Positions 16,501 through 61,232 of a stretch of DNA of 64,000 nucleotides are shown here, piece by piece (position 1 is the stretch's first letter; the number at the start of each line of letters is the position of its first letter). The notes under the pieces were generated by a model. The model searched no databases and was not told where the DNA came from. It saw only the letters and a list, made by a program, of their open reading frames with translations. The stretch lies in assembly GCF_058153355.1 (NCBI RefSeq), contig NZ_CM177019.1; one strand, written 5' to 3'. A program made the translations under genes and the position numbers.

Positions 16501-16537
16501 CAAGGCTGGTAACGCTGTTCAAAAGACAGGTGATACC

Positions 16538-18032: not shown

Positions 18033-18060
18033 AAATTAAGGCCCGATATCGGGCCTTCTC

Positions 18061-18594: not shown

Positions 18595-18596
18595 CG

Positions 18597-38629: not shown

Positions 38630-39220
38630 TCATGCCTTACCCAGCAGCACATCACGGATACGCTGCTCCAGCTCTTCGCTGATGCCATCCTGCCCGCGCA
38701 GTTCTTCACTGACGGCGTTTGCCGCTTCTTCTGCGAATGCCTGGCGGATTTCTTTCTCGCGCCGGTGGCTGGACATTGCCGTGGATTCCAGACGCTGTGC
38801 CGCCAGCATGGCATTTTTCAGCAGGTCAATATCCACGTCAGATTCCGGGTTTTCGATTTGCCGCATCATGGCCTTAAAAAGCTGGCTGCGGGCCATTTCC
38901 AGAATCAGCTTTGTGGTTTCTCCCATTGGCTTGTCGCCAAGTTCTGCGGTCAGTGCTGACGTCATTTCACGCATCTGTCGCAGGTTATGGCCTACCTGCT
39001 CGACGTTCGTCGCGTAACGATTCAGACCGGAACGGGAGAGTTTCATCTCATCCGGCAGGCCAGCGTCTTCAATCAGTGCGTTAATTTCTTCCAGAATGCG
39101 GGCCTGTGGGATCGCCTTATCACGCAGCATTTCATGCAGCGTTTTACGTACGTTTTCCGGCAGTAAATCCACTTTTGAAGCCCGGCCCCGTGTTTTCCTG
39201 TCCATCACGCCTCCTGTCAT
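38630..39220 (-). CDS. Terminase small subunit-like DNA-binding protein
   Basis: 196 aa, directly upstream of the large terminase. Confidence 0.6.
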   Translation of the reverse strand: MTGGVMDRKTRGRASKVDLLPENVRKTLHEMLRDKAIPQARILEEINALIEDAGLPDEMKLSRSGLNRYATNVEQVGHNLRQMREMTSALTAELGDKPMGETTKLILEMARSQLFKAMMRQIENPESDVDIDLLKNAMLAAQRLESTAMSSHRREKEIRQAFAEEAANAVSEELRGQDGISEELEQRIRDVLLGKA

Positions 39221-39507
39221 GCACGGGGACGCGGACGCTTGACACCGGCAACGCGGGCGCGGCCTTCCGCCACATCCTGACCTCGGGAGGTCAGCGTTAC
39301 GACATAAAAGCCGCGCAGGTTTTCCACGGTGACCAGTTGCTGCTCTGCCAGCCAGTCAATCTGGCCGCGAACCACATCGCGGGAAACGTTGTGTCCGTAT
39401 GCATCCAGACAGTCCTGAAGGATGGATTCGTTGGCTTCGTTATTGCAGTCCATCAGGGAACGCAGGATGACCAGACGACGGTCTTCAGTCAGAATATCGT
39501 TAATCAT
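39217..39507 (-). CDS. Mu late-region small protein
   Basis: 96 aa; tight packing. Confidence 0.45.
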   Translation of the reverse strand: MINDILTEDRRLVILRSLMDCNNEANESILQDCLDAYGHNVSRDVVRGQIDWLAEQQLVTVENLRGFYVVTLTSRGQDVAEGRARVAGVKRPRPRA

Positions 39508-39821
39508 GAATTACTCCGGTTTACTGCGTTTTCAAGCAGCAGCTCCAGTTGATGGGAAAATGACTGCACCCGCTGGGACAGCACCCGGATATCGCCGGAC
39601 AGCTCTGCAATACGCAGGCGCATTTCGTGTACATCTTCTGTGCCGGGGATGCTGGCGTAGCGGGTTTCCATTTCGGTCATCCGGTTTTCAAGACGCTCCA
39701 CACGCTCAGTGCTGGCAAAACTACGACGCATTGCCCAGACGGCCCCACCGGCCACAACAGGCAACAGGTAAGGCCATAACGCTAAAACTGAAATCAAATC
39801 CATTATTCTGCTCCACGGCAC
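39504..39821 (-). CDS. Mu late-region small membrane protein (lysis-associated position)
   Basis: 105 aa with N-terminal hydrophobic segment (LISVLALWPYLLPVVAGGAVWA). Confidence 0.45.
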   Translation of the reverse strand: MPWSRIMDLISVLALWPYLLPVVAGGAVWAMRRSFASTERVERLENRMTEMETRYASIPGTEDVHEMRLRIAELSGDIRVLSQRVQSFSHQLELLLENAVNRSNS

Positions 39822-39997
39822 CAGTGGCAGTAGTTCGCCATCGGCTGCTGTCTCAGCACATCAGGCCGCAGCTCACGACCGCAACCGGCACACAATACAG
39901 GCGGGTCATACGCCGCCGGGCGGGGAATATCACGGGTATCCCCCTGCCAGAGTTCAGCGAGCAGCAGCGCCACCGCCCGGTTCTGGTCTTCGTTCAT
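39803..39997 (-). CDS. Small Cys-containing protein
   Basis: 64 aa with CAGCGREL...CHWC pattern. Confidence 0.35.
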   Translation of the reverse strand: MNEDQNRAVALLLAELWQGDTRDIPRPAAYDPPVLCAGCGRELRPDVLRQQPMANYCHWCRGAE

Positions 39998-40295
39998 AAA
40001 TTTCTTTCCTTCGGGTCTCCTGTTCCCGGACTGATGCCTTGTCGCGGTTGCACTGCCCGAGCGCCATCAACAGGTCAGCATTCCAGAGAAGGGATGCTCC
40101 CCACGTCAGGGGCTGTGGCATGGGCGGAACGGGCGTTGCTTCCGTCAGTTCTGCATCAGTTTCGGGCAGGATCACCACCGATGGCACGGGTGCGTTTTTC
40201 GAGTTCCCGCAACCTGTCAGCAGCAACGGCAGGCACAGGACGAGTGCTGCAATTGTCACCGGTAATGGCGGTTGTAATTTTTTGTTTTGCATCAT
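39954..40295 (-). CDS. Outer-membrane spanin (lipoprotein), overlapping the i-spanin in another frame
   Basis: Lipobox LLLTGC after a signal-like segment; start trimmed to MMQNKK (ORF track to 40430). Confidence 0.5.
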   Translation of the reverse strand: MMQNKKLQPPLPVTIAALVLCLPLLLTGCGNSKNAPVPSVVILPETDAELTEATPVPPMPQPLTWGASLLWNADLLMALGQCNRDKASVREQETRRKEIYERRPEPGGGAAAR

Positions 40296-40542
40296 GATGT
40301 TCTGTCTCATCTTCCAGCCGCGCGGCACGATTTGCGGCACGGATAGCGGAAAATACCTGCATCGTCTGTTCCTGACTGTGTAACAACCATTCAGCAGTGT
40401 GGCGGGCCTGTTGCTCCGTCTGTAATTCACGGCGCAGCGTCTGGTTATCGTGGCGGGTGCTGTCCAGCCTGTGCCACAACACCCCGGACAGAACGGCGGT
40501 AAACACGGCTGCCAGCAGTAAACTTTTACTGGCGAAGGTCAT
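40156..40542 (-). CDS. Inner-membrane spanin (Rz-like)
   Basis: 128 aa; N-terminal transmembrane helix then coiled-coil; immediately downstream of the endolysin. Confidence 0.55.
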   Translation of the reverse strand: MTFASKSLLLAAVFTAVLSGVLWHRLDSTRHDNQTLRRELQTEQQARHTAEWLLHSQEQTMQVFSAIRAANRAARLEDETEHHDAKQKITTAITGDNCSTRPVPAVAADRLRELEKRTRAIGGDPARN

Positions 40543-41044
40543 CCGCCCCCCTGATATTCCAGATTGCCATTTCCACTTCGCGACGGTTCATCAGTCCTTT
40601 CCATTTATGGCCTGCGGCAAACACCCAGCGGGCCATCTGGTCACGTGCTCCGGCGTAATCACCGGCATTGAGTTTTTTCAGCAGCGTTGATTTACTGAAT
40701 GCGGTAACACCGGTGTTGAAAATAAACGTTGCCAGCGCCGTTTTCTGATATGGCGTCAGCGGCACCCTGACAAGACGATCGATTGCCGCATAAACCGGTT
40801 TTAAATCACTGTCGAGGAGAGCCATACACTCCGCATGGCTGTAACGGCGCATTTCAATATCCGGCCCGGTATGTCCCACACAGACCGTAAGCACACCGGC
40901 AATATCGCGGTAAGGCAGATAAGCGATATTTTCCAGATGGATCAGAGACTGACGGGTCATTTCCTGATAACCACCCACACCGCCACCGGCAATTGTTACA
41001 GCCAGCAGTGCGGCTTTCAGTTTTTTTGGGATCTCCGCCATCAT
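40526..41044 (-). CDS. lys: Endolysin with N-terminal signal-arrest-release-like segment
   Basis: 172 aa; N-terminal weakly hydrophobic Gly/Ala-rich stretch (AALLAVTIAGGGVGGY) followed by a lysozyme-like domain; follows C. Confidence 0.8.
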   Translation of the reverse strand: MMAEIPKKLKAALLAVTIAGGGVGGYQEMTRQSLIHLENIAYLPYRDIAGVLTVCVGHTGPDIEMRRYSHAECMALLDSDLKPVYAAIDRLVRVPLTPYQKTALATFIFNTGVTAFSKSTLLKKLNAGDYAGARDQMARWVFAAGHKWKGLMNRREVEMAIWNIRGADDLRQ

Positions 41045-41135
41045 GCTTCCCTGAAAAAATGCGCTGATGGCAGTCTAAAAAATCAGGTGACAGGTGCGGG
41101 ATTATGGTGACAGGAAATAACCGGCAGGATGCCGG

Positions 41136-41558
41136 TTATTTCTGGCTTTCAGGTGAGAACAGGTCAGGCTGATGACGTCGTGTATGCAGCTTTCTCTGGC
41201 GGGCAATAATCTGGTAGATCTGCGGCTGGGACAGGCGATACTGGCGACGCAGTTCTTCCATGTTACGACCATTGAACTGGCAGTAAAGCAAATCGTCGCG
41301 TAACGCGGTCAGGATCGTATCGCCGCAGGGGATGTAAAACTGCCGCCCGCCCAGAAAACAGGACAGGGCAACGGCCTGTTTACGGGCAAGCTCACGGGGA
41401 TTGCTGACGTTCTGGCGTTTCAGTTCGTTTTCCAGAACATCAATCAGATCAACCACCGAACGGGGCCAGCGTGATTCCAGTTCCGGGGCCGGGATGTTAT
41501 CAATATGTCCGATTAACTGGCGAATTGCCGGATCGTGTTCAAATAAATCATGCTGCAT
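41136..41558 (-). CDS. C: Late-gene transcription activator C
   Basis: 140 aa; paralogue of Mor (shared ...FNGRN...EL...Y..S motif). Confidence 0.85.
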   Translation of the reverse strand: MQHDLFEHDPAIRQLIGHIDNIPAPELESRWPRSVVDLIDVLENELKRQNVSNPRELARKQAVALSCFLGGRQFYIPCGDTILTALRDDLLYCQFNGRNMEELRRQYRLSQPQIYQIIARQRKLHTRRHQPDLFSPESQK

Positions 41559-41670
41559 ATTTTCCCCCGGTTAACAGACAGAAAGATACACCACGGCACT
41601 GATGGTTATCAGAACCACAAGGGCAATCACTTTTATCGCACTCATCAGCGTGGACGGACCGAAACATTCA

Positions 41671-41901
41671 TCACTGAATTTTCTGTACACAATATTTTTC
41701 CTTATAACGTTGGCAGTGGTGAAGAATTTCCGGCATATCAACCGACTGCCAGCCTTTCATGTAATAACTTCCGTGGGTGCCATCATGACCGGTATAGTCG
41801 CGGGGCGAAGGCCGTGGCCCACCGGCGACACGGTGTAAAACCTCCTGACGCAGCCGCTCACGTCTGCCAAGATGAAAGGATGCATTCCAGCCTTTACCCA
41901 T
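41671..41901 (-). CDS. Hypothetical small ORF between mor and C
   Basis: 76 aa ORF in the mor-C gap; no motif recognised. Confidence 0.3.
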   Translation of the reverse strand: MGKGWNASFHLGRRERLRQEVLHRVAGGPRPSPRDYTGHDGTHGSYYMKGWQSVDMPEILHHCQRYKEKYCVQKIQ

Positions 41902-43493: not shown

Positions 43494-43813
43494 TTTGCGG
43501 CCCTCAGAATAAATTCAGGATAAAATTTCAGACTCATTTGCCGTAACACATCCAGTGCAGCAACGGCTGCTGATTTATCGTTGCCATCAGCAATAGCGCG
43601 GAGATTTTCAATAATCCAGTGAGGACTCAGTGACTCAGCAACAATACCGAGTCGGTACGCCATGACCTCATCAATTGCACGGTTATAAGACGGGGCGTAT
43701 ACCGCCGCCACAAAGTTACCGATCACATCTTCAGGAAAACCCGCCGCCGTCAACAACGCTGTCAGTTCCTCGGATTTTGTAAATACGCCATTATTCATTC
43801 TGTTCACCTTCAC
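43490..43813 (-). CDS. Mu semi-essential early-region protein
   Basis: 107 aa. Confidence 0.45.
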   Translation of the reverse strand: MKVNRMNNGVFTKSEELTALLTAAGFPEDVIGNFVAAVYAPSYNRAIDEVMAYRLGIVAESLSPHWIIENLRAIADGNDKSAAVAALDVLRQMSLKFYPEFILRAAK

Positions 43814-44054
43814 AATTCATGCACGCCGTGTCATCGCCCATATCGCAGTGGTTGCATTTCTGCCCGCCACAATGGGGACACTCTTTCAGATATTCAGGGG
43901 ATTCATTACCGCAGGTCGGGCATTCCTGTTTCACCGTGGTGAATTTCCCCAGCCACGAATACGATGTTTCATTGTTTTCCATTGTTTGCCTCCGCCTGCT
44001 CCAGTGCCATAACTGGTGCGTCAGAACAGTCAAGAATGAGATAGCGCAGTACAT
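43791..44054 (-). CDS. Mu early-region Cys-rich small protein
   Basis: 87 aa; CPTCG...CPHCGGQKCNHC...CMNC zinc-ribbon-like cysteines. Confidence 0.45.
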   Translation of the reverse strand: MYCAISFLTVLTHQLWHWSRRRQTMENNETSYSWLGKFTTVKQECPTCGNESPEYLKECPHCGGQKCNHCDMGDDTACMNCEGEQNE

Positions 44055-44520
44055 GGTCGGTGATATTCCATGCGCTTGAGCTGCAAATAAAACGCCCCAG
44101 CCGGATATCGATATAAGCCATCACAAAACGGGGCATTCCCTGTTTGCACATCTCGTCATCCACTTCTGCAACGATGTGAACGGATTCACAGGTCAGTACG
44201 CCTGTCGCAAACTCTTTTGCCAGCGCGGGGATAGTATTACCTTCCACCCAGGGTAATGAGCGACGCCAGTTGCACCACACCGCATCATCAACGGCAGGCT
44301 GCTCAGTTGCGTTTCGTCTTACAGGCGGCGTCGGACGCGGGCGCGGAACGTCATAAAATCCGTTGCATTCGGTGAGCACTCCGGCATCAACCGCATCCCG
44401 CAGGAAATACACCATTGACGAGGGCAGCATCTTCATTTTTTCAGCCAGAACCCCGCAGGTCAGACGCCCGTAAGCCAGTAATAATGTGCTGACCCCATTC
44501 AGAACTTTTGCATCAATCAC
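43969..44520 (-). CDS. Mu semi-essential early-region protein
   Basis: 183 aa. Confidence 0.45.
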   Translation of the reverse strand: MIDAKVLNGVSTLLLAYGRLTCGVLAEKMKMLPSSMVYFLRDAVDAGVLTECNGFYDVPRPRPTPPVRRNATEQPAVDDAVWCNWRRSLPWVEGNTIPALAKEFATGVLTCESVHIVAEVDDEMCKQGMPRFVMAYIDIRLGRFICSSSAWNITDHVLRYLILDCSDAPVMALEQAEANNGKQ

Positions 44521-44523
44521 CGG

Positions 44524-45078
44524 TTATTCCTCCGTCAGTGCCACAAATTCAGAATGTTTAATACGCTGGCATTCGGAGGGAACTGGTCCTTTAACCTCAC
44601 CGTCCAGAAGGCGCACCTCAAACAAAATGCCGAATCCATCACGGGTGTGGTGCATCTCCCAGAGCGATTTGAAATCCCACATATTGGGTATGACATCAAC
44701 CCCAAGTTCATTGCACAGCCAGCCCGGAAAATCCGGGTATTTACCGAGCTGATTTTCATAGCCCCGGATAAGCTCCGCGTGTTCCCGGCCTGCTGGTGTT
44801 GTCATATCCGGCATCGCTGCCCATAACTGAATATCACCAATAAAAAGTGTCCTTGATTTAATCTCCCATCCTTCCGGTGGTAAACGGTTAAACCAGACAC
44901 GCGTAACCCTCTCAGGCCCTTTGTCACCAGACAAAAACACACCGCTTGCTTTCACTGATTGCTGTAATGACGCAATAATCTCACCACGCTTAACAGAAAC
45001 CTCTTTCAGCCAGCGAATCGTATAACCGTTAGCGGCTGCGTCACTCAGTTTAAAATAAGCACATGCTTTCATTTTCAT
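44524..45078 (-). CDS. Mu semi-essential early-region protein
   Basis: 184 aa. Confidence 0.45.
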   Translation of the reverse strand: MKMKACAYFKLSDAAANGYTIRWLKEVSVKRGEIIASLQQSVKASGVFLSGDKGPERVTRVWFNRLPPEGWEIKSRTLFIGDIQLWAAMPDMTTPAGREHAELIRGYENQLGKYPDFPGWLCNELGVDVIPNMWDFKSLWEMHHTRDGFGILFEVRLLDGEVKGPVPSECQRIKHSEFVALTEE

Positions 45079-45169
45079 TCTCTCCGGTTCTGATTAAGGC
45101 GCGAGTCGTCCCCTGACGCATCGCGCCATAATTAAACGAATGTGAATTAATTAAATATTAATGGTGGTA

Positions 45170-45694
45170 TTAAATACCGGCTTCCTGTTCAAACGGAATA
45201 ATGGAAAAATCTTCAATTCCCGATTTAACTGTAATTCCGGCAACACCTGCGACCGCTTTCGGTTCCAGTAAAATCGCTTCCTTGTTGATTTCCTGCTTCG
45301 TGCGAATAAAGCGTTGCAGGCCAAGACGCTCCAGCGTTTCCATCACTGCATCCATACCACGAATACTTACTGATGGTGGACGGACCCGCCACGATACATC
45401 ACCGGTGACAAGATTTGCCGTTTTCACTTTGCCGCCGTTTGTCAGTTCGTCGCGGTTCGCTTCACACCATCCCTGAACGCCTTTTGAAAGGGTTTCAATA
45501 TCGGTTTTAATCGGTGCAATCCGGGCTGCAAATTTCTCCGTAATTTCCGCGATGGCATCATTCATTTCCGTTTCCAGACGTGATGCTTCGCGCTGTAAGT
45601 CCCCGATGCGTTTAATATCGGTAATCACCGCATCGCGGTTTTGTGGCACATAAGCCGCTGCGGCACTTTTGATACGTTTTGCTGGTTTAGCCAT
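45170..45694 (-). CDS. gam: Gam (Ku-like DNA-end-binding host-nuclease inhibitor)
   Basis: 174 aa, MAKPAKRIKSAAAAYVPQN...; size and position as Mu Gam. Confidence 0.8.
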   Translation of the reverse strand: MAKPAKRIKSAAAAYVPQNRDAVITDIKRIGDLQREASRLETEMNDAIAEITEKFAARIAPIKTDIETLSKGVQGWCEANRDELTNGGKVKTANLVTGDVSWRVRPPSVSIRGMDAVMETLERLGLQRFIRTKQEINKEAILLEPKAVAGVAGITVKSGIEDFSIIPFEQEAGI

Positions 45695-45713
45695 AAATTA
45701 AAGCTCCTGTTAA

Positions 45714-46013
45714 TTAATATCCGCTGTATACAATGCTGGATACAGCTCGATTGCTTAATTCCATCTTTCGGGCAATGACATGAATATCCAGCCCTTCTTT
45801 ATAAAGTTCACGACATAAATATTTGTCGTGTTCACTGATTCGGTATACACACAATGATATTCCGTGCCTTCTGGCATGTGCCCGGAGGGCGGTTGTGGCG
45901 ACTTTCAGTTTTTCCGCCATTTCTTCAACGGTCATTTTCCCGACGTTGGCTTCGATAAATTCCCGGTCTTCGCGTGACCAGCGCTTACGATTACACTTCA
46001 TGTCAGCCACCAT
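45714..46013 (-). CDS. Mu early-region small protein, HTH-like
   Basis: 99 aa. Confidence 0.45.
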   Translation of the reverse strand: MVADMKCNRKRWSREDREFIEANVGKMTVEEMAEKLKVATTALRAHARRHGISLCVYRISEHDKYLCRELYKEGLDIHVIARKMELSNRAVSSIVYSGY

Positions 46014-46433
46014 TCAGTACAGCAGAGGCTCGCGCAGTGATGCCGGAATATGCCGCAGCGATAACTGAACCGCTTTCAGGGCAAGCGAGGAATAACAGCA
46101 GCGCGCCCGGCCTTTTGCCATTAACCGGTAATCGCGCCAGATACGCTGCCACATTTCACGGGCTTCAGGGTCTGATGCGCAGATGTATTCCCGGTCCATG
46201 ACGTACTCCCATAAATCCACGTTGAACGCACCGCCAAATGCAATGGCGCGGGATATGCTTTCGCCGCAATAACGCGCACAGATGCTGTAATGGTCGAAAG
46301 CAATCAGGTAAGTCTTTTCACCACAATCATCAACTTTCCGGGCGTAAATAAATCCGCGTAATTCACCACCGTTGTTATTGCGTCCCTGAATTCGGATTAA
46401 TGCCTGAATTTCATTTCGGATTTTGACGTTCAT
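46014..46433 (-). CDS. Mu early-region protein
   Basis: 139 aa. Confidence 0.45.
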   Translation of the reverse strand: MNVKIRNEIQALIRIQGRNNNGGELRGFIYARKVDDCGEKTYLIAFDHYSICARYCGESISRAIAFGGAFNVDLWEYVMDREYICASDPEAREMWQRIWRDYRLMAKGRARCCYSSLALKAVQLSLRHIPASLREPLLY

Positions 46434-46453
46434 TGTCAGCGCTCCTTTGCGAA

Positions 46454-46723
46454 TTAATGTTTAACCGCATTCACCGGATGTGGTACTAAATCACATTCAG
46501 CCTCCATACCCACTTTCTTCATAGTGGTCAGCATCTCATCTTTGGCCTTTTTAATAATTTCAGGAGCCATAGTCAGGACGATATTTGCCAGTAAATCATG
46601 AGGCCCGGTATTTTCCGTTGGCGAGATATCTGCAAGACATGCTTTTGCATCCAGAACTTCTCTGCGCCCATTGCAACCTTCACAACTTTCCAGCCATGTA
46701 AACTCAAAGATAACTTTTGCCAT
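46454..46723 (-). CDS. Mu early-region small protein
   Basis: 89 aa. Confidence 0.45.
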   Translation of the reverse strand: MAKVIFEFTWLESCEGCNGRREVLDAKACLADISPTENTGPHDLLANIVLTMAPEIIKKAKDEMLTTMKKVGMEAECDLVPHPVNAVKH

Positions 46724-51506: not shown

Positions 51507-51511
51507 CCGGG
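51507..51511. repeat. Target-site duplication CCGGG (left-end flank of Mu)
   Basis: Identical to 14782..14786. Confidence 0.9.
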
Positions 51512-51540
51512 TATGTCGTTATTCAATAAAGGTGCCTCGT

Positions 51541-52443
51541 ATGCAAATCACCAACATGCATTGCAGTGGACAAACCGTTTCACTTGCCGCGGGGGATTAT
51601 CACGCGACTATCGTGACGGTTGGTGCTGGTCTGGCTGAATTAACTTTTCAGGGTTGTCATTTAGTCATCCCGCACAAACCCGAAGAGATGCCGCTGGCGC
51701 ATCTGGGTAAAGTGCTTATTCCGTGGCCGAACCGGATCGCCAACGGCTGTTACCGCTATCAGGGACAGGAATATCAGTTACCCATTAATGAACATAGTTC
51801 AAAAGCCGCTATTCACGGGCTGCTTGCCTGGCGAGACTGGCAAATTAGCGAATTAACCGCCACCAGCGTTACCCTGACAGCTTTTCTACCGCCCAGTTAC
51901 GGCTATCCGTTTATGCTGGCTTCGCAGGTTGTTTATTCGCTCAATGCTCGCACGGGCCTTTCCGTTGAGATCGCAAGCCAGAATATTGGTACTGTGACCG
52001 CACCTTATGGTGTGGGTATTCATCCTTATTTAACCTGCAACTTAACATCTGTTGATGACTATCTTTTCCAGCTTCCGGCAGAACAGGTTTATGCCGTCGA
52101 TGAGCACGCAAATCCGACAACGCTTCACCACGTTGATGAGCTGAATTTAAATTTCACGCGGGCGACAAAAATAGCCGCGACAAAAATAGACCATACCTTT
52201 AAAACCGCTAATGATCTGTGGGAAATGACCATTACCCATCCACAGCAGGCGCTGTCGGTGAGTCTTTGTTCCGATCAACCCTGGGTGCAGGTTTATAGCG
52301 GCGAAAAATTACAGCGTCAGGGACTGGCAGTTGAACCTATGAGTTGCCCGCCTAACGCCTTTAATTCAGGTATCGACTTATTATTACTGGAACCAGGAAA
52401 AACGCACCGCCTGTTTTTTAATATTCACGGGCAGCACAATTAA
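51541..52443 (+). CDS. yihR: Aldose 1-epimerase-family protein (sulfoquinovose mutarotase)
   Basis: Start MQITNMH... with RBS AAAGG; the longer 345-aa ORF (from 51406) begins inside Mu left-end DNA and is an artefact. Synteny between yihS and yihQ. Confidence 0.85.
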   Translation: MQITNMHCSGQTVSLAAGDYHATIVTVGAGLAELTFQGCHLVIPHKPEEMPLAHLGKVLIPWPNRIANGCYRYQGQEYQLPINEHSSKAAIHGLLAWRDWQISELTATSVTLTAFLPPSYGYPFMLASQVVYSLNARTGLSVEIASQNIGTVTAPYGVGIHPYLTCNLTSVDDYLFQLPAEQVYAVDEHANPTTLHHVDELNLNFTRATKIAATKIDHTFKTANDLWEMTITHPQQALSVSLCSDQPWVQVYSGEKLQRQGLAVEPMSCPPNAFNSGIDLLLLEPGKTHRLFFNIHGQHN

Positions 52444-52503
52444 TTTTATTAAGAAAAGAACGAGATTATTGTTTAGGGTTGTATTTACACAACAGGAAAT
52501 ATT

Positions 52504-53379
52504 ATGGACTTTTTTACGTTATTTTCGCCAGATGGGGCCATGCTGGAAACAAACGTGGTATGTATCGTTATCGCGTTGATGTTTCTTTATACCTTTGTGG
52601 GGATATGCGCGGGATTTGGTGGCGGTTTAACCACCATGCCACTCGTCACGTTAATGCTCCCCGTAAAAATGGCAACACCACTTTCGGTAATTGTCGGCAC
52701 CGCAACCGCCTTGTACGCCACCTGGCTATCACGCAAAGAAACGGATTGGCGCTCGGCAATGGTGCTGATTATTTTCTCATTTTTGGGAATACCCGTCGGT
52801 TTATATGCGCTGTCATATTTACCCGACCATTTTATGAAAGTGGGCTTAGGTGGATTTCTTATCCTCTACTCCTTTTACAGCATGTTTATTCCTCGCTTGC
52901 CGATTTATGACCGTAACTGGATCGCCGCACCTATCGGCGCAGTAGCTGGCGCATTAGGCGCGGCGTTCTCAACCAACGGGCCGCCGATGGTTATCTACGG
53001 GATGCTGCGTAACTTAGGTCCGGCGGCATTTCGCGGCACTCTGAACGCTTTCTTCACCGCAAACAACATCGCGGTGATCGGCGGGCTGGCGACCAGCGGA
53101 ATTTTGACTGTTTCTATCTTTAAACTGGTGCTGTTTTGTATTCCCACCATGATCCTCGGTTCACTGATTGGACAATATGTGCATAAACGCATTTCGGTCA
53201 AAGTGTTTCGTGTGATGGTCTTTTTATTGTTGATTGCCTCCGGTTCTATGTTGATAAAAGGTGCGTTGGGAATTCCCGCCGCTGCCGCACTTCTGCCTCC
53301 GTTTACCTTGTTAGTTATACTGCAACTGGCATTTGGTAAAAAAGTGGCGGCAATCCGCCGGGCTGAAGAAAGTAAATAA
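52504..53379 (+). CDS. TauE/SafE-like polytopic membrane protein (putative sulfonate/sulfite-type anion exporter)
   Basis: 291 aa, very hydrophobic with Gly-rich helices (GFGGGLTT, GAVAGALGAAFSTNGPP); co-oriented inside the yihR-yihQ interval. Confidence 0.65.
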   Translation: MDFFTLFSPDGAMLETNVVCIVIALMFLYTFVGICAGFGGGLTTMPLVTLMLPVKMATPLSVIVGTATALYATWLSRKETDWRSAMVLIIFSFLGIPVGLYALSYLPDHFMKVGLGGFLILYSFYSMFIPRLPIYDRNWIAAPIGAVAGALGAAFSTNGPPMVIYGMLRNLGPAAFRGTLNAFFTANNIAVIGGLATSGILTVSIFKLVLFCIPTMILGSLIGQYVHKRISVKVFRVMVFLLLIASGSMLIKGALGIPAAAALLPPFTLLVILQLAFGKKVAAIRRAEESK

Positions 53380-53485
53380 TCATTATGCGGGTTTTAATTT
53401 ATACCTTCACACATTCTTTAATTAATGAAACCTGTAATAACAGGATGGCATGAAATATTAGTTTTATACTCTATGGAGATTATTT

Positions 53486-55522
53486 ATGGATACGCCACGC
53501 CCACAGTTATTAGATTTTCAATTTCATCAGAATAACGACAGTTTTACTCTACGTTTTCAAGACCGTCTTATTTTAATCCATAGCAAAGATAATCCTTGCT
53601 TATCGATTGGCTCAGGTATAGCGGATATCGATATGTTCCGCGGTAATTTCAGCATTAAAGATAAATTGCAGGAGAAGATTGCGCTCACCGACGCCATCGT
53701 CAGCCAGTCACCGGATGGCTGGTTAATCCATTTCAGCCGTGGTTCTGACATTAGCGCCACGCTGCGTATCTCTGCCGACGATCAGGGCCGTTTATTGCTG
53801 GAACTACAAAACGACAACCATCACCACAACCGCATCTGGCTGCGTCTTGCCGCACAACCAGAGGACCATATCTACGGCTGCGGCGAACAATTCTCCTACT
53901 TTGATCTGCGCGGCAAACCGTTCCCGCTATGGACCAGTGAACAAGGCGTTGGTCGCAACAAACAAACCTATGTCACCTGGCAGGCCGACTGCAAAGAGAA
54001 CGCGGGCGGCGACTATTACTGGACTTTCTTCCCGCAGCCTACTTTTGTCAGCACGCAGAAGTATTACTGCCATGTCGATAACAGCTGCTATATGAACTTC
54101 GACTTCAGTGCTCCGGAATACCATGAACTGGCATTGTGGGAAGACAATGCCACCCTGCGTTTTGAATGTGCGGACACATACATCTCCCTGTTGGAAAAAT
54201 TAACCGCCCTGCTGGGACGTCAGCCAGAACTGCCCGACTGGATTTATGACGGGGTAACGCTAGGTATTCAGGGCGGGACAGATGTATGCCAGAAGAAACT
54301 GGATACCATGCGTAACGCGGGTGTGAAGGTCAACGGCATCTGGGCGCAGGACTGGTCCGGGATCCGCATGACCTCGTTTGGCAAACGTGTGATGTGGAAC
54401 TGGAAGTGGAACAGTGAAAACTACCCACAGTTAGATTCCCGCATCAAGCAATGGAAAGAAGAAGGCGTGCAGTTCCTCGCCTACATCAACCCGTATGTTG
54501 CCAGCGATAAGGACCTCTGCGCCGAGGCGGCTTCACATGGCTATCTGGCAAAAGATGCCTCTGGCGGTGACTATCTGGTGGAATTTGGGGAGTTTTACGG
54601 CGGCGTTGTCGATTTGACCAATCCTGAAGCATATTCCTGGTTCAAAGAAGTCATCAAGAAAAACATGATCGAATTGGGCTGCGGCGGCTGGATGGCAGAT
54701 TTTGGCGAATACTTGCCGACCGATACGTATCTGCATAACGGCGTTAGCGCCGAAATTATGCATAACGCCTGGCCCGCACTGTGGGCGAAATGTAACTACG
54801 AAGCCCTTGAAGAAACGGGCAAGCTTGGCGAGATCCTTTTCTTTATGCGCGCCGGTTCTACCGGTAGCCAGAAATACTCCACCATGATGTGGGCGGGCGA
54901 CCAGAACGTCGACTGGAGTCTGGACGATGGCCTGGCGTCGGTTGTTCCGGCGGCGCTCTCGCTGGCGATGACCGGGCATGGCCTGCATCACAGTGACATT
55001 GGCGGTTACACCACCCTGTTTGAGATGAAGCGCAGCAAAGAGCTGCTGCTGCGCTGGTGCGATTTCAGCGCCTTCACGCCGATGATGCGCACCCACGAAG
55101 GTAACCGTCCTGGCGACAACTGGCAGTTTGACGGCGACGCGGAAACCATCGCCCATTTTGCCCGTATGACCACCGTCTTCACCACCCTGAAACCTTACCT
55201 CAAAGACGCCGTCGCGCTGAATGCGAAGTCCGGCCTGCCGGTTATGCGCCCGCTGTTCCTGCATTACGAAGACGACGCGCAGACCTACACCCTGAAATAT
55301 CAGTACCTGTTAGGCCGCGACATTCTGGTCGCTCCGGTGCATGAACAAGGCCGTAGCGACTGGACGCTCTATCTGCCGGAGGATAACTGGGTCCACGCCT
55401 GGACAGGTGAAGCGTTCCGGGGCGGGGAAGTTACCGTTAATGCGCCCATCGGTAAACCGCCGGTCTTTTATCGCGCCGATAGCGAATGGGCGGCACTGTT
55501 CGCGTCGTTAAAAAGCATCTAA
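53486..55522 (+). CDS. yihQ: Sulfoquinovosidase (GH31 alpha-glycosidase)
   Basis: 678 aa; GH31-like catalytic region (WAQDWSG..., GGWMADFGE); synteny. Confidence 0.9.
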   Translation: MDTPRPQLLDFQFHQNNDSFTLRFQDRLILIHSKDNPCLSIGSGIADIDMFRGNFSIKDKLQEKIALTDAIVSQSPDGWLIHFSRGSDISATLRISADDQGRLLLELQNDNHHHNRIWLRLAAQPEDHIYGCGEQFSYFDLRGKPFPLWTSEQGVGRNKQTYVTWQADCKENAGGDYYWTFFPQPTFVSTQKYYCHVDNSCYMNFDFSAPEYHELALWEDNATLRFECADTYISLLEKLTALLGRQPELPDWIYDGVTLGIQGGTDVCQKKLDTMRNAGVKVNGIWAQDWSGIRMTSFGKRVMWNWKWNSENYPQLDSRIKQWKEEGVQFLAYINPYVASDKDLCAEAASHGYLAKDASGGDYLVEFGEFYGGVVDLTNPEAYSWFKEVIKKNMIELGCGGWMADFGEYLPTDTYLHNGVSAEIMHNAWPALWAKCNYEALEETGKLGEILFFMRAGSTGSQKYSTMMWAGDQNVDWSLDDGLASVVPAALSLAMTGHGLHHSDIGGYTTLFEMKRSKELLLRWCDFSAFTPMMRTHEGNRPGDNWQFDGDAETIAHFARMTTVFTTLKPYLKDAVALNAKSGLPVMRPLFLHYEDDAQTYTLKYQYLLGRDILVAPVHEQGRSDWTLYLPEDNWVHAWTGEAFRGGEVTVNAPIGKPPVFYRADSEWAALFASLKSI

Positions 55523-55567
55523 TCACGTCCGCCCGTGGGGAAACTCACGGGCAAAGGGAGAACAACG

Positions 55568-56953
55568 ATGAGTCACATCACAACGGAAGATCCGGCTACT
55601 TTACGTCTGCCCTTTAAAGAGAAACTCTCTTACGGTATCGGCGATCTGGCCTCTAACATCCTGCTGGATATCGGCACGCTTTATCTTTTGAAGTTTTATA
55701 CCGACGTTCTGGGGCTGCCCGGTACCTATGGCGGCATTATCTTTTTGATTTCGAAGTTCTTTACTGCGTTTACCGATATGGGTACCGGCATCATGCTCGA
55801 TTCCCGACGCAAGATCGGTCCAAAAGGTAAGTTCCGTCCTTTTATTCTGTATGCGTCATTCCCGGTCACCTTACTGGCGATCGCCAACTTTGTCGGCACA
55901 CCGTTTGATGTCACCGGTAAAACGGTGATGGCCACTATCCTGTTTATGCTCTACGGGCTGTTTTTCAGCATGATGAACTGCTCTTATGGCGCAATGGTCC
56001 CCGCTATTACCAAAAACCCCAACGAACGCGCATCACTGGCGGCATGGCGTCAGGGTGGCGCTACATTGGGCCTGCTGCTTTGTACGGTGGGATTCGTGCC
56101 GGTTATGAATCTTATCGAGGGTAATCAGCAACTTGGCTATATCTTCGCCGCCACGCTGTTTTCACTGTTCGGCCTGCTGTTTATGTGGATCTGCTATTCG
56201 GGCGTGAAAGAGCGTTATGTCGAAACGCAACCTGCAAATCCGGCGCAAAAGCCTGGCTTGTTGCAGTCTTTCCGCGCAATTGCGGGTAACCGCCCACTGT
56301 TCATTCTGTGTATTGCCAACCTCTGCACCTTAGGGGCGTTTAACGTCAAGCTCGCCATCCAGGTCTATTACACCCAGTACGTACTTAACGATCCCATCCT
56401 GTTGTCGTATATGGGATTTTTCAGCATGGGCTGTATTTTCATCGGCGTGTTCCTGATGCCTGGCGCAGTCAGACGTTTTGGTAAGAAGAAGGTCTATATC
56501 GGCGGTCTGCTGATCTGGGTGCTGGGCGATCTGCTCAACTATTTCTTCGGCGGCGGCTCGGTTAGCTTTGTGGCGTTCTCCTGCCTGGCATTCTTCGGCT
56601 CGGCGTTTGTTAACAGCCTGAACTGGGCACTGGTTTCTGACACCGTCGAGTACGGCGAGTGGCGCACCGGTGTGCGTTCGGAAGGTACGGTCTACACCGG
56701 CTTCACCTTCTTTCGCAAAGTTTCTCAGGCGCTGGCAGGCTTCTTCCCTGGCTGGATGCTGACGCAAATCGGCTATGTACCAAACGTCGCCCAGGCTGAC
56801 CACACCATTGAAGGGTTGCGCCAGCTGATCTTCATCTACCCAAGCGCACTGGCGGTAGTCACCATTGTTGCGATGGGTTGCTTCTACAGCCTGAACGAGA
56901 AGATGTACGTCCGCATTGTAGAAGAAATAGAAGCCCGTAAACGCACGGCATAA
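55568..56953 (+). CDS. yihP: GPH-family glycoside/cation symporter
   Basis: 12-TM transporter; start trimmed to MSHITTEDP with RBS AAAGGGAGA (ORF track from 55535). Confidence 0.85.
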   Translation: MSHITTEDPATLRLPFKEKLSYGIGDLASNILLDIGTLYLLKFYTDVLGLPGTYGGIIFLISKFFTAFTDMGTGIMLDSRRKIGPKGKFRPFILYASFPVTLLAIANFVGTPFDVTGKTVMATILFMLYGLFFSMMNCSYGAMVPAITKNPNERASLAAWRQGGATLGLLLCTVGFVPVMNLIEGNQQLGYIFAATLFSLFGLLFMWICYSGVKERYVETQPANPAQKPGLLQSFRAIAGNRPLFILCIANLCTLGAFNVKLAIQVYYTQYVLNDPILLSYMGFFSMGCIFIGVFLMPGAVRRFGKKKVYIGGLLIWVLGDLLNYFFGGGSVSFVAFSCLAFFGSAFVNSLNWALVSDTVEYGEWRTGVRSEGTVYTGFTFFRKVSQALAGFFPGWMLTQIGYVPNVAQADHTIEGLRQLIFIYPSALAVVTIVAMGCFYSLNEKMYVRIVEEIEARKRTA

Positions 56954-56960
56954 ATAATAA

Positions 56961-56982
56961 ACAACGCCCTGCGGGGCGTTAT
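56961..56982 (+). other. Intercistronic GC stem-loop between yihP and yihO
   Basis: aacgccc-tgcg-gggcgtt perfect 7-bp stem directly before the yihO RBS (ataaggag); no T-tract, so likely a processing or stability element rather than a terminator. Confidence 0.4.
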
Positions 56983-56993
56983 AAGGAGTGATT

Positions 56994-58397
56994 ATGTCTG
57001 ACCATAATCCACTGACATTAAAACTGAATCTGCGGGAAAAAATCGCTTATGGCATGGGCGACGTCGGTTCGAATTTAATGCTTAGCATCGGCACTCTGTA
57101 TCTCCTCAAATTTTATACCGATGAATTAGGGATGCCTGCTTACTATGGCGGGATTATCTTTCTGGTGGCGAAATTCTTTACCGCGTTTACCGATATGCTC
57201 ACCGGATTTTTACTCGACTCGCGGAAAAATATTGGGCCTAAAGGCAAATTTCGTCCCTTTATTTTATATGCAGCGGTTCCGGCGGCGTTAATTGCAACGC
57301 TCCAGTTTATCGCCACCACTTTTAGTTTGCCGATTAAAACGACGATTGCCACCGCGCTGTTTATGATGTTTGGACTTTCATACAGTCTGATGAACTGCTC
57401 GTATGGCGCGATGATCCCAGCAATTACCAAAAACCCCAATGAGCGCGCGCAGCTTGCGGCTTACCGCCAGGGTGGTGCAACCATAGGGCTATTGATTTGT
57501 ACCGTAGCATTTATTCCATTGCAGTCGCTTTTTTCTGACTCCACTGTCGGTTATGCCTGCGCGGCACTGATGTTCTCCATTGGTGGCTTTATTTTTATGA
57601 TGCTGTGCTACAGAGGCGTCAAAGAGCATTATGTGGACACGACGCCAACCGGACATAAAGCCAGTATTCTCAAATCTTTTTGCGCGATATTTCGTAATCC
57701 GCCATTGCTGGTTTTATGCATTGCTAACCTGTGTACCCTGGCGGCATTTAATATCAAACTGGCAATTCAGGTCTATTACACCCAGTATGTGCTGAATGAT
57801 ATTAATTTATTGTCGTGGATGGGATTCTTCAGTATGGGATGCATCCTCATCGGCGTATTGCTGGTGCCATTAACTGTAAAATATTTTGGTAAAAAACAGG
57901 TTTATTTAGCTGGCATGGTGCTGTGGGCGGTGGGGGATATCCTGAATTATTTCTGGGGCAGTAACTCTTTCACTTTCGTCATGTTCTCTTGTGTCGCCTT
58001 TTTTGGTACGGCCTTTGTAAACAGCCTGAACTGGGCGCTGGTACCGGATACCGTAGATTATGGTGAATGGAAAACAGGTATACGTGCCGAAGGTTCTGTT
58101 TATACCGGTTATACCTTCTTTCGTAAAATTTCAGCCGCACTTGCTGGCTTCTTGCCAGGCATTATGCTGACGCAAATCGGTTATGTTCCCAACATCGCGC
58201 AAAGCGATGCAACATTACAGGGTTTGCGTCAGCTCATTTTTATTTGGCCTTGTGCGCTGGCGATAATTGCTGCATTGACGATGGGATTCTTTTACACGCT
58301 CAATGAAAAACGTTTTGCGATGATTATTGAGGAAGTTAACCAACGCAAAAATAAAGAAATTAAGACAGAAGAAAAAACGGCTTCCGTAACGTTATAA
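56994..58397 (+). CDS. yihO: GPH-family transporter (sulfoquinovose/sulfoquinovosyl-glycerol uptake), paralogue of yihP
   Basis: Paralogous to yihP (shared LYLLKFYTD, FTAFTDM, NCSYGAM motifs); ATG at 56994 preceded by TAAGGAG. Confidence 0.85.
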   Translation: MSDHNPLTLKLNLREKIAYGMGDVGSNLMLSIGTLYLLKFYTDELGMPAYYGGIIFLVAKFFTAFTDMLTGFLLDSRKNIGPKGKFRPFILYAAVPAALIATLQFIATTFSLPIKTTIATALFMMFGLSYSLMNCSYGAMIPAITKNPNERAQLAAYRQGGATIGLLICTVAFIPLQSLFSDSTVGYACAALMFSIGGFIFMMLCYRGVKEHYVDTTPTGHKASILKSFCAIFRNPPLLVLCIANLCTLAAFNIKLAIQVYYTQYVLNDINLLSWMGFFSMGCILIGVLLVPLTVKYFGKKQVYLAGMVLWAVGDILNYFWGSNSFTFVMFSCVAFFGTAFVNSLNWALVPDTVDYGEWKTGIRAEGSVYTGYTFFRKISAALAGFLPGIMLTQIGYVPNIAQSDATLQGLRQLIFIWPCALAIIAALTMGFFYTLNEKRFAMIIEEVNQRKNKEIKTEEKTASVTL

Positions 58398-58463
58398 AAA
58401 CAATAGCCGCTATGACCATCTACAGGGATGGCGGCCTTCCTACATATAAAAAATGGATTTAAT

Positions 58464-59156
58464 ATGAAAAAGTTAAATGCAATAATTTTATTATCCTCTC
58501 TGACTTCCGCATCGGTATTCGCAGGCGCATACGTCGAAAACAGGGAGGCATATAATCTCGCCTCCGATCAGGGCGAGGTTATGCTACGTGTGGGTTATAA
58601 CTTCGATATGGGCGCGGGTATCATGTTAACCAATACCTACAACTTTCAGCGAGAAGATGAACTAAAACATGGATATAACGAAATCGAAGGTTGGTATCCT
58701 TTATTTAAACCAACCGATAAATTAACCATCCAGCCCGGTGGCTTAATTAATGATAAGAGCGCCGGTTCCGGTGGTGCTGTTTATCTGGATGTTAACTACA
58801 AATTTGCCCCGTGGTTTAACCTGACGGTACGCAACCGTTTTAACCATAATAACTACAGCACAACCGATTTAAACGGTGATCTGGATAATAATGACAGCTA
58901 CGAGATTGGTAACTACTGGAACTTTATTATTACCGATAAGTTCTCATATACCTTTGAACCGCATTATTTTTATAATATTAATGATTTCAACAGCAGCAAT
59001 GGCACCAAGCATCACTGGGAAATCACTAACACCTTCCGTTACCGAATTAATGAGCACTGGCTGCCCTATATTGAATTGCGCTGGTTAGACCGCAACGTCG
59101 AGCCGTACCACCGCGAGCAAAACCAGATCCGTATCGGGACGAAGTATTTCTTCTGA
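58464..59156 (+). CDS. ompL: Outer-membrane porin OmpL
   Basis: Start MKKLNAIILLSSLTSASVFA (signal peptide); beta-barrel-like alternating pattern, C-terminal ...KYFF; ORF track begins 36 bp earlier. Confidence 0.85.
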   Translation: MKKLNAIILLSSLTSASVFAGAYVENREAYNLASDQGEVMLRVGYNFDMGAGIMLTNTYNFQREDELKHGYNEIEGWYPLFKPTDKLTIQPGGLINDKSAGSGGAVYLDVNYKFAPWFNLTVRNRFNHNNYSTTDLNGDLDNNDSYEIGNYWNFIITDKFSYTFEPHYFYNINDFNSSNGTKHHWEITNTFRYRINEHWLPYIELRWLDRNVEPYHREQNQIRIGTKYFF

Positions 59157-59169
59157 TGTAAAAATGTAA

Positions 59170-59198
59170 AAAGCCGCTGATATTTAAGCGGCTTTTTA
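59170..59198 (+). terminator. Rho-independent terminator after ompL
   Basis: aagccgct-gatattta-agcggct stem-loop followed by TTTTT. Confidence 0.7.
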
Positions 59199-59336
59199 CA
59201 CAGATATTCACAATATAAATAACTCCCCATAATTATATAACCGCGTTGATTATAAAATATTCCTCGTCCTCTCTATCAAAGTCATTGACTACCAGGTAAG
59301 ATCTTTTCCACTGCAACACTCACAAGGAATGAGAAA

Positions 59337-60185
59337 ATGGAAAAGAAATTTTTTATGGATTGGGATAATGAAATCCCGCAAGAAGAGTTTATTAACAATA
59401 TTTTAGCCGATGAAGACCTGCCTAAAATCCGCTCTCTGATTATTGGTCGTTGGGGGGAGTGCTGGGATGAGGAAAGTTGCCAACCAATAATCGACATGTT
59501 TGTTGAACATGCCGAACGCTTTGCTCATCTCGAATCCCTATTTATCGGCGATATGGAAAGCGAAGAGTGTGAAATTTCGTGGATAAAACAAGGGGATTAT
59601 TCTCGTCTGTATGCTGCGCTGCCGAACCTGAAAAAGCTGACAATTAAAGGTACTCAGGGCCTGGAACTGGGAGAAATCGCCCATGACAAACTGGAGCATC
59701 TGGAAATTATCTCTGGCGGTACGCCGTGTGACGTGTTCGCCTCATTGCAAAATGCCCAACTGCCTGCGTTAAAAACACTTATCGTTTATATTGGCGTTGA
59801 GAATTATGGTTTTGATGCATCGCTGGATATCGTAATGAAGCTGGCGTCGAAATCCCTCTTCCCGAGCCTGACGCATCTTGGCCTGGTGAACAGCGAAGAG
59901 CAAAACGAAATCGTCCGCCGCGTGCTGGAAAGCGACATTCTGCCGCAACTGGAAGTGCTGGCACTCTCCTGCGGTACGCTTACCGACGAAGGTGCAGAGC
60001 ATCTTCTCAAACATGCCGATCGCCTTAGCCATCTGAAACTGCTGGATTTGTACCATCATTACCTGACAGAAGAGATGCAGAAAAAACTGCAAAAAACACT
60101 GACATGTACTCTCGAATTATCAGAAGCGCTAACGCCTGAAGTCTATGATGACGAAATTTATATGCATGCGATGTATACCGAATAA
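59337..60185 (+). CDS. Repeat-containing protein with leucine-rich-repeat-like segments (accessory cluster gene 1)
   Basis: 282 aa acidic protein with recurring LxxLxxLxL-type units (LPNLKKLTIKG, LEHLEIISG, LPALKTLIVY, FPSLTHLGLVN, LPQLEVLALSCG, LSHLKLLDLY); preceded by the ompL terminator and an AT-rich promoter-like region. Confidence 0.55.
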   Translation: MEKKFFMDWDNEIPQEEFINNILADEDLPKIRSLIIGRWGECWDEESCQPIIDMFVEHAERFAHLESLFIGDMESEECEISWIKQGDYSRLYAALPNLKKLTIKGTQGLELGEIAHDKLEHLEIISGGTPCDVFASLQNAQLPALKTLIVYIGVENYGFDASLDIVMKLASKSLFPSLTHLGLVNSEEQNEIVRRVLESDILPQLEVLALSCGTLTDEGAEHLLKHADRLSHLKLLDLYHHYLTEEMQKKLQKTLTCTLELSEALTPEVYDDEIYMHAMYTE

Positions 60186-61232
60186 ATGACATTTATTGGG
60201 AGAGAGTCATCTCTCCCATTATTTATCACAGAAAAGGAATTCTTCGTGATTACGCTAATTGGTCATCCTGAAAGCAAACGCACATTTTATTTTTGCCAGG
60301 CAGCGTCACGCTTACAGGAACATATCAACGTAGTGAGCTATGATCAAGCACTTACCCTGCTCTTAAATAAAGGCATGGTAAAAATCGATCCCCCCTTACA
60401 TCAGGAAACAGATATTCGCTTAATTAATACGGTTAGCCAAAACTATATTACTTTTTTACAAAAAATGGCTACCAGAAGGGAGATCCGTTTTATTAACTCA
60501 CCAGAAGGTATTATTCATCTTCTGGATAAACGCCACTGTAAGCAACGATTAGTCGAACACGCGATCCCGACACCGCCAATATTAGCGGATGATATCCGTA
60601 GCTACGATCAACTGATCGCCTGTATGCGCAGCGAAAAGGTTTATCGCGTGTTTATTAAGCCGAATTTCGGATCAGGGGCCGCCGGGGTGCTGGCTTTGAG
60701 TCTACATCCCGGCGATAACCGTCAGGCGCTTTATTGCGCCATCCAGGTTGCAGGTGACAGGCTGGTGAACAGTAAACATATTATCCGCTATGAAAACAGC
60801 GGTGATATTACGTTGATTGTGAATGCTATTTTACAACAAGACAATATTATCGAACGCTGGCTGGCAAAAGCCAGAGTGGGCAATAAAAGCTACGATTTAC
60901 GCATAGTGTACGTTAATGGTGAAATCGTCTGGCGGGTTGTCAGAACATCATCACAGCCGATCACCAATTTGCATCTGCAAAATGAAGCCATTCGTTTTGC
61001 CGATCTTAATTTACCCGCAGAAAAAGTGGCTGACATTGACACGCTTTGTCTCAACGCCATGAAACTCTACCCGGACGTACACATTGCCGGGCTTGATGTA
61101 TTACTCACGCAAAACTTAACCCCCTATATTATCGAAATTAACGGCCAGGGCGATCTTATTTATCAGGACACCTGCGAACAAAATATGATTTATCAACGCC
61201 AGATTCAGGTAATGAGAGAACACCATGTATAA
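60186..61232 (+). CDS. ATP-grasp family enzyme (YheC/YheD / RimK-like ligase) (accessory cluster gene 2)
   Basis: Motifs VFIKPNFGSGAAGVLAL, YDLRIVYVNGEIVW, YIIEINGQGD typical of ATP-grasp folds. Alternative GTG start at 60247 after a perfect hairpin gggagagagtcatctctccc (60205..60224). Confidence 0.6.
   Translation: MTFIGRESSLPLFITEKEFFVITLIGHPESKRTFYFCQAASRLQEHINVVSYDQALTLLLNKGMVKIDPPLHQETDIRLINTVSQNYITFLQKMATRREIRFINSPEGIIHLLDKRHCKQRLVEHAIPTPPILADDIRSYDQLIACMRSEKVYRVFIKPNFGSGAAGVLALSLHPGDNRQALYCAIQVAGDRLVNSKHIIRYENSGDITLIVNAILQQDNIIERWLAKARVGNKSYDLRIVYVNGEIVWRVVRTSSQPITNLHLQNEAIRFADLNLPAEKVADIDTLCLNAMKLYPDVHIAGLDVLLTQNLTPYIIEINGQGDLIYQDTCEQNMIYQRQIQVMREHHV

Follow-up and report, generated by a model that had tools for sequence, protein, structure and literature searches.

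The minus strand of the window (the whole 64,000-nucleotide stretch of DNA that was analysed) carries three genes between positions 39954 and 41044 that encode, in order of transcription, the GH24 lysozyme gp22, gp23 and the lipoprotein gp23.1. We assigned gp22 (Lys; 40526-41044 or 40526-41041) as a SAR endolysin with GH24 muramidase activity from its matches to PF00959 and phrog_7 and its near-identity to the Mu protein; gp23 (40156-40542) as the i-spanin, or inner-membrane subunit, from phrog_214, an N-terminal TMD and predicted helices; and gp23.1 (39954-40295) as the o-spanin, an outer-membrane lipoprotein, from PF23793, phrog_3001 and the lipobox LLLTGC. Continuing on the same strand are gp24 (39803-39997), a 64-aa protein encoded between the spanins and the releasin and placed by its identity to Mu gp24 and by phrog_3260, and the releasin gp25 (39504-39803), a DUF2730 protein placed by PF10805 and its identity to Mu gp25. 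All five open reading frames of this cassette (gp22, gp23, gp23.1, gp24 and gp25) are intact, with zero internal stops. On the other side of gene 22, also on the minus strand, are the C-dependent late promoter Plys (41052-41118), an intrinsic terminator 3' of gene C that closes the middle transcript (41115-41138), both recognised by identity to features of AF083977, and gene C itself (gp21; 41136-41558), which encodes the late-transcription activator of the Mor family (PF08765). Gene 20 (41571-41690, on the late, Mu-forward strand) is retained, with a GTG start.

A preliminary description of this DNA, made from the sequence alone, had placed a three-gene lysis cassette at 39954-41044, and we found every element that it described, on the minus strand. 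The extent that it gave holds for the coordinates of gp22, gp23 and gp23.1 and leaves out the releasin gene at 39504-39803. Because the cassette reaches gp25 on one side and Plys on the other, the functional unit is approximately 39504-41118, not 39954-41044. We consider it very likely (probability about 0.95) that the genes at 39954-41044 are the lysis module of an intact Mu-type prophage (genus Muvirus) and would work as published for Mu. That lysis system is already known, the near-identical Mu copy having been characterised experimentally (Chamblee et al., 2022; PMC9239132), and near-identity to the Mu proteins strongly suggests what the lysis proteins of the prophage do.

The cassette lies in a complete Mu-type prophage on the minus strand (14787-51506), recognised by its Mu ends, its target duplication and its collinearity with Mu. 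Exact 27-nt matches to the Mu right end at 14787 and the Mu left end at 51506 delimit 36,720 bp flanked by a 5-bp target duplication, CCGGG. Over the 22-kb late region the prophage aligns collinearly with Mu, with 97-98% identity. The left flank, which ends in yihS, is 98.9% identical to E. coli; the right flank, which begins upstream of yihR, is 90-95% identical to most E. coli genomes. The empty site is present in E. coli CP098223.1, where the two flanks abut with an exact 5-bp overlap (coordinates 156595 and 156599), the signature of genuine Mu transposition. The lower identity of the right flank led us to consider a host other than E. coli; judged by the left flank and the empty site, the chromosome is E. 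coli-like and the yihO-yihQ neighbourhood variable. Of 5,426 complete E. coli genomes, 40 carry the cassette at 95-99% identity, in every case chromosomally; 15 phage records contain it too.

The 3-kb region around the cassette has 98.0% DNA identity to Mu (AF083977, NC_000929), 98.7% to vB_YpM_Tongde (Tongde), 97.8-98.7% to D108, SfMu, PhiR68_1 and several Yersinia Muvirus phages, and 95.8% to vB_YpM_5 and vB_YpM_6. At the protein level, identity to Mu is 169/171 residues for gp22, 124/128 for gp23, 108/113 for gp23.1, 64/64 for gp24, 99/99 for gp25, 96/96 for gp26, 138/140 for C and 128/129 for Mor. The gene content, gene order, overlaps, promoter and regulators are those of Mu, and K6/K7/K9 and the catalytic triad of gp22, the lipobox and the TMDs are conserved. 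This copy differs from Mu by two substitutions in gp22 (G3E and M42L), four in gp23 and five in gp23.1, by the absence of gene 19 and by the GTG start of gene 20. The AF083977 record labels 22 as SAR endolysin, 23 as i-spanin, 23.1/Mu_55 as o-spanin, 24 as hypothetical and 25 as releasin; the comparison with published Mu lysis genes that had been proposed as a check therefore bears out the assignments of 22, 23 and 23.1, which agree with these labels and with PMC9239132. Similarity to SfMu, Tongde, vB_YpM_23 and PhiR68_1 extends over a one-piece alignment from mor to gene 26, and these phages likewise have no gene 19. The releasin is identical in Tongde, vB_YpM_23 and PhiR68_1, and that of SfMu has one extra codon. 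Unlike this copy, all four have Gly3 and Met42 in gp22; residue 15 of gp22 is Val here and in Mu and Ala in most of the phages that lack gene 19.

The endolysin gene opens with a tandem ATG-ATG, common to all 9 genomes compared, that gives a 172-aa product from the first ATG (40526-41044) and a 171-aa product from the second (41041), which is the curated start of Mu gene 22. By sequence, either 41044 or 41041 is a candidate start. The protein matches Pfam Phage_lysozyme (PF00959; E=1.6e-37, 129 bits against a cut-off of 22.3) and the PHROG endolysin family phrog_7 (E=1.1e-51), and it carries the catalytic motif E-X8-D-X5-T as E37/D46/T52 (ENIAYLPYRDIAGVLT). A search of NCBIfam with the five cassette proteins gave no match that reached the cut-off, with weak domain-level lysozyme matches only. 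The N-terminus, MAEIPKKLKAALLAVTIAGGGVGGY, consists of a basic head, with conserved K6, K7 and K9, and then a weakly hydrophobic segment. Residues 6-25 (KKLKAALLAVTIAGGGVGGY) include 4 Ala, 5 Gly and 1 Thr, so that 10 of 20 residues are Ala, Gly or Thr, and the highest Kyte-Doolittle mean over any 19 aa is 1.09, as compared with 1.8-2.3 in the true TMDs and signal sequence encoded nearby. The closest solved structures are RrrD (4ZPU) and the phage 21 SAR endolysin R21 (3HDE, 3HDF), and the alignment to 3HDE (E=2.5e-37) begins at residue 6 and hence runs through the SAR segment. Mu gp22 has been shown experimentally to be a SAR endolysin that is membrane-bound and inactive until released by gp25, chloroform or a pinholin, with the phage 21 pinholin and chloroform each being able to release it (PMC9239132). 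Composition, hydropathy, the 3HDE alignment and the Mu experiments thus all speak for the SAR-type endolysin with a Gly/Ala-rich, weakly hydrophobic N-terminus that had been noticed in the sequence. By its 98.8% identity to Mu gp22, the endolysin of this prophage is expected to be tethered to the membrane and then released without cleavage (PMC9239132).

Compared with R21 of phage 21 and RrrD of DLP12 (3HDE, 3HDF, 4ZPU), gp22 shares the GH24 fold family, the catalytic motif and a SAR alignment from residue 6 (E ~1e-37). The Mu-type cytoplasmic tail is longer and more basic, however, and the SAR segment is Gly-rich, with 5 Gly in residues 19-24 of this copy. Control also differs: R21 and RrrD are controlled by a pinholin (S21 68), whereas in the Mu type a releasin takes the place of the holin (PMC9239132).

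Gene 25 is the fourth gene after gene 22, two genes past 23.1 on the same late transcript and 151 bp beyond position 39954, which agrees with the expectation for a type I releasin, that its gene follow the endolysin gene by no more than five genes on that transcript. Its product, identical to the prototype Mu gp25 at 99 of 99 residues and labelled 'releasin' in AF083977, matches PF10805 (DUF2730) over its full length (E=2.5e-13, 50.4 bits against a cut-off of 24.9). An N-terminal TMD (Kyte-Doolittle mean 1.84) is followed by RR at residues 26-27, and the positive-inside rule predicts an N-out/C-in topology; the cytoplasmic part contains 12 acidic residues, 9 Ser and 2 His. In Mu, deletion of gene 25 (Mu 25::cam) blocks lysis for ~3 h, gp22 and gp25 expressed together suffice for lysis, the dependence of gp22 on gp25 is conferred by the basic residues at positions 6 and 7, and gp25 also helps to release unrelated SAR endolysins (PMC9239132). 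For its molecular action the authors proposed a protease, charge neutralisation or a transient TAT-like channel (PMC9239132). By analogy with Mu, gp25 of this copy is probably needed for the release of gp22 (PMC9239132). Since gp25 is a membrane protein that is not a holin, it would explain how lysis is triggered without one. Among the papers that we searched for later work on the releasin, none adds to the 2022 paper, save for a mention in a 2024 preprint on Shewanella LambdaSo.

The intervening protein, gp24, is identical to Mu gp24 at 64 of 64 residues, has four Cys (CxxC...CxxC) and matches phrog_3260, a family of unknown function (E=1e-42). Searches of Pfam and NCBIfam gave only sub-threshold NinF, BsaP and CxxC matches, and gp24 is not mentioned in PMC9239132.

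The first 17 bp of gene 23 are also the last 17 bp of gene 22. The 128-aa product of gene 23 is hydrophobic near its N-terminus, at residues 4-22 (Kyte-Doolittle mean 1.80), and is predicted by single-sequence AlphaFold2 (mean pLDDT 78.6) to be nearly all helical, with helices at 4-75, 79-94 and 105-122. The protein matches phrog_214, 'Rz-like spanin' (E=1.5e-34). Pfam returned only DUF2570, below threshold (18.7 bits against a cut-off of 26.6), so its family assignment rests on PHROGs together with identity to Mu. Gene 23.1 begins inside gene 23 and, from an MMQ start at 40295, encodes 113 aa and ends at 39954. From this start it shares exactly 140 bp with gene 23, read in a different frame (offset 1), and extends 202 bp beyond the end of gene 23, a layout that we take to be the 'overlapped' spanin type, being neither fully embedded, as lambda Rz1 is, nor separate. 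By sequence, the start candidates for gp23.1 are 40310, 40295 and 40292.

In the gp23.1 N-terminus, MMQNKKLQPPLPVTIAALVLCLPLLLTGC, the stretch VLCLPLLLTGC fits the PROSITE PS51257-type lipobox rule, with Cys29 as the lipobox Cys and Gly30 at +2; the predicted mature chain has 85 aa, 10 of them Pro. As a control for chance, the same rule was applied to all six frames of the whole window, where only 3 loci, gp23.1 included, fitted it out of 746 frames that start with ATG and encode 50 aa or more. The protein matches Pfam PF23793, 'Rz1-like lysis system protein LysC', above the cut-off (E=8.6e-15) and phrog_3001, an Rz-like spanin family (E=9.3e-30), and it is identical at 113/113 residues to the proteins of SfMu, Tongde and PhiR68_1, as compared with 108/113 for Mu. 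What had been described here as an i-spanin-like ORF with an N-terminal TM segment, overlapped by about 140 bp in a different frame by a lipoprotein ORF with the lipobox LLLTGC, is confirmed on each point: the TM and lipoprotein predictions were positive for the two spanin ORFs, and gp23 is the i-spanin in the Mu assignments as well (PMC9239132). The Mu gp23 and gp23.1 proteins are spanins; amber mutations in 23 and 23.1 gave a spherical-cell phenotype, and lambda RzRz1 complemented the Mu 23.1 amber tested (PMC9239132). Carried over from the Mu 23.1 ambers, the same activity, with spherical cells on its loss when the outer membrane is stabilised, would be expected of this copy (PMC9239132). 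The resemblance to lambda Rz/Rz1 and P2 LysB/LysC includes this complementation and the Pfam LysC match; unlike in those systems, the o-spanin gene here has its start within the i-spanin gene and its last 202 bp beyond it. Gene 23.1 is unannotated in seven other Mu-group phage records that we inspected, including those of phages without gene 19.

The regulatory elements upstream of the cassette are conserved as well. The C protein (140 aa; PF08765, E=9.3e-34) is identical to Mu C at 138 of 140 residues and is labelled 'transcription regulator C' in AF083977. Plys is identical at 64 of 67 bases to the feature that AF083977 places just upstream of gene 22 as 'Late promoter activated by C, PMID 2522923', and the terminator after C is identical at 24 of 24 bases to a TransTermHP terminator in the same record. 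A scan of positions 39200-41700 for sigma-70 promoters and terminators gave counts no higher than in shuffled sequence and nothing at Plys; the blank at Plys is expected of a promoter that depends on an activator (C).

To look for a holin, every ORF of 30 aa or more on the Mu-forward strand of the prophage was scanned for Kyte-Doolittle hydropathy, and no candidate emerged. Among the real genes of that strand, a strong hydrophobic segment was seen only in gene 20 and the genes for gp23, gp23.1 and gp25; the other hits were short out-of-frame ORFs within large structural or early genes, and the late-strand membrane proteins are the spanins and gp25 only. There are no insertions relative to Mu in or near the late lysis region. 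The scan and the AF083977 annotation concur with the preliminary description in finding no obvious holin next to the cassette. Gene 19 is absent, with a clean gap of 369-372 bp relative to Mu that runs from the gene 19 start codon to the gene 20 start codon; gene 20 here starts with GTG, and the C-terminus of gp18 differs from that of Mu. The same arrangement is found in SfMu, Tongde, YpM_23 and PhiR68_1, all of which were isolated as phages.

These observations bear on the idea that lysis is controlled in the canonical way by a holin, and perhaps an antiholin, encoded near the cassette, for example by genes 19 and 20, with release of gp22 following holin or pinholin triggering. Reference Mu does encode two small membrane proteins just upstream of C, gp19 with 4 TMDs and gp20 with 1 TMD, which were proposed as a holin-antiholin pair by Samanta et al., 2021 (as cited in PMC9239132); gene 20 is kept in this prophage (41571-41690), and a heterologous pinholin is able to release gp22 (PMC9239132). 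However, gene 19 is cleanly missing here and from SfMu, Tongde, YpM_23 and PhiR68_1, and the late strand carries no further real TMD gene. Moreover, genes 19, 20 and 25, expressed singly or all together, were not lethal upon addition of DNP, and DNP delays Mu lysis instead of triggering it, the experimental conclusion being that Mu has no holin (PMC9239132). We therefore regard holin control as extremely improbable. The phages without gene 19 agree with the conclusion of PMC9239132 that gp19 is not a lysis protein.

Equally improbable is the account in which gp22 has no SAR domain but a cleavable Sec signal peptide, as an ordinary secreted endolysin would. The N-terminus does have the layout of an n-region (KKLK) and an h-region, and small residues at the Gly-rich end of the segment could loosely fit the -3/-1 cleavage rule. 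The hydrophobic core is unusually weak, however (mean 1.09, half of its residues Ala, Gly or Thr), and it aligns with the SAR domain of R21, for which the tethered and released forms have both been solved (3HDE, 3HDF). Constitutive secretion of an active lysozyme would be lethal from the moment the enzyme was made. In Mu, gp22 remains in the membrane without activity until it is released by gp25, chloroform or a pinholin (PMC9239132). Somewhat less remote, though still very unlikely, is that the prophage is defective and its cassette a relic, inactive in the host. Decay is frequent among chromosomal prophages; against it stand the five intact ORFs with no internal stops, the conservation of Plys and gene C, and a full-length prophage with exact transposition ends, a target-site duplication and collinearity with Mu.

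We thus favour a working, holin-less and releasin-dependent Mu-type lysis module, for which the following course of events may be proposed. Late in induction, the C protein would activate Plys, giving a transcript that encodes gp22, gp23, gp23.1, gp24 and gp25, then the packaging and head genes. The endolysin would be exported by Sec and tethered in the inner membrane by its SAR segment, with the periplasmic muramidase domain held inactive and with K6 and K7 in the short cytoplasmic tail locking the protein in the membrane. Anchored in the membrane N-out/C-in, gp25, with its acidic cytoplasmic domain, would let the SAR segment leave the bilayer; freed gp22 would refold and degrade peptidoglycan, and the complex of the inner-membrane spanin gp23 with the outer-membrane lipoprotein gp23.1 would then disrupt the outer membrane. 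With no holin, timing would be set at the level of endolysin release.

The one feature that may set this copy apart is the G3E substitution in gp22. Neither of the two differences from Mu gp22, G3E and M42L, occurs in the eight other Mu-group genomes compared. The substitution places an acidic residue in the short cytoplasmic tail, adjoining the K6/K7 'lock', and lowers the net side-chain charge of residues 1-9 from +3 to +2. It is conceivable, although unlikely, that this change weakens membrane retention and renders the endolysin partly or wholly independent of the releasin. If so, G3E would be a natural allele for probing the charge arrangement in SAR release; its possible effect on retention and releasin dependence is the only angle with some novelty, and a mild one.

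Overall, the significance of this cassette goes little beyond correct annotation, since holin-less, releasin-dependent Mu lysis was published in 2022 for identical or near-identical proteins (PMC9239132). The absence of gene 23.1 from the Mu-group phage records suggests that automated annotation of such prophages would miss the o-spanin. The lineage without gene 19 may provide natural evidence that gp19 is dispensable in Mu lysis, and the natural G3E variant and the natural gene 19 deletion together offer ready-made alleles for a laboratory that studies Mu lysis.

A complete Mu-type prophage occupies window positions 14787–51506 in the minus orientation (36,720 bp, with exact Mu ends) and is flanked by a 5 bp target duplication, CCGGG. 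The host chromosome is E. coli-like, with yihS and yihR as the genes on either side of the insertion, and the empty site was found in E. coli CP098223.1. The left host flank has 98.9% identity. The right host flank (51507–64000) carries yihR, yihQ, yihP and yihO, followed by radical-SAM genes of the STM4012/STM4014 family; it shares only 90–95% identity with most E. coli genomes, its best match is 97.6%, and at least 80% of it is covered in 154 genomes. This region appears to be a variable chromosomal neighbourhood.

Within the lysis region, we observed two changes in the SAR endolysin gp22, each confined to the window copy among the nine Mu-group genomes compared. Position 3, in the cytoplasmic tail, is Glu rather than Gly (G3E; codon 3 of gene 22 is at 41033–41035), and the second change is M42L. 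G3E adjoins K6/K7, the residues that determine dependence on the releasin (Chamblee et al., 2022; PMC9239132). On the late transcript, gp24 is flanked by the spanins and the releasin. gp24 (39803–39997; 64 amino acids with a CxxC...CxxC arrangement) is 100% identical to Mu gp24; the paper on Mu lysis (PMC9239132) makes no mention of it. Family searches with gp24 gave only sub-threshold matches; its orthologue in the PhiR68_1 record is labelled a TraR/YbiI family protein.

The o-spanin gene, 23.1, is intact at positions 2347–2688 of all seven compared phage loci (PhiR68_1, D108, Tongde, Mu_3F6, YpM_5, YpM_23 and SfMu) and annotated in none of the seven records; the re-curated Mu record, AF083977, is the only one here in which it is annotated. 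Mu gene 19, whose product is a protein with four TMDs that was formerly put forward as a holin, is cleanly missing from the window copy (41571–41901), leaving a gap of ~370 bp that spans the distance between the start codons of genes 19 and 20. The latter gene is itself retained (41571–41690, GTG start), and the C-terminus of gp18 differs from that of Mu. The same layout lacking gene 19 is found in SfMu, Tongde, YpM_23 and PhiR68_1.

Several blocks of the early "semi-essential" region (43497–46712) have no match in Mu, namely those at about 44536–45088 (553 bp), 46449–46712 and 43497–43788; these are small early genes, either replaced or extra. Compared with the Mu reference record, the invertible G segment (16467–19567) is flipped. 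Parts of the tail-fibre and assembly genes within it have diverged, with 82–92% identity as compared to ~97% elsewhere, suggesting that the G segment of this prophage carries a different host-range cassette.
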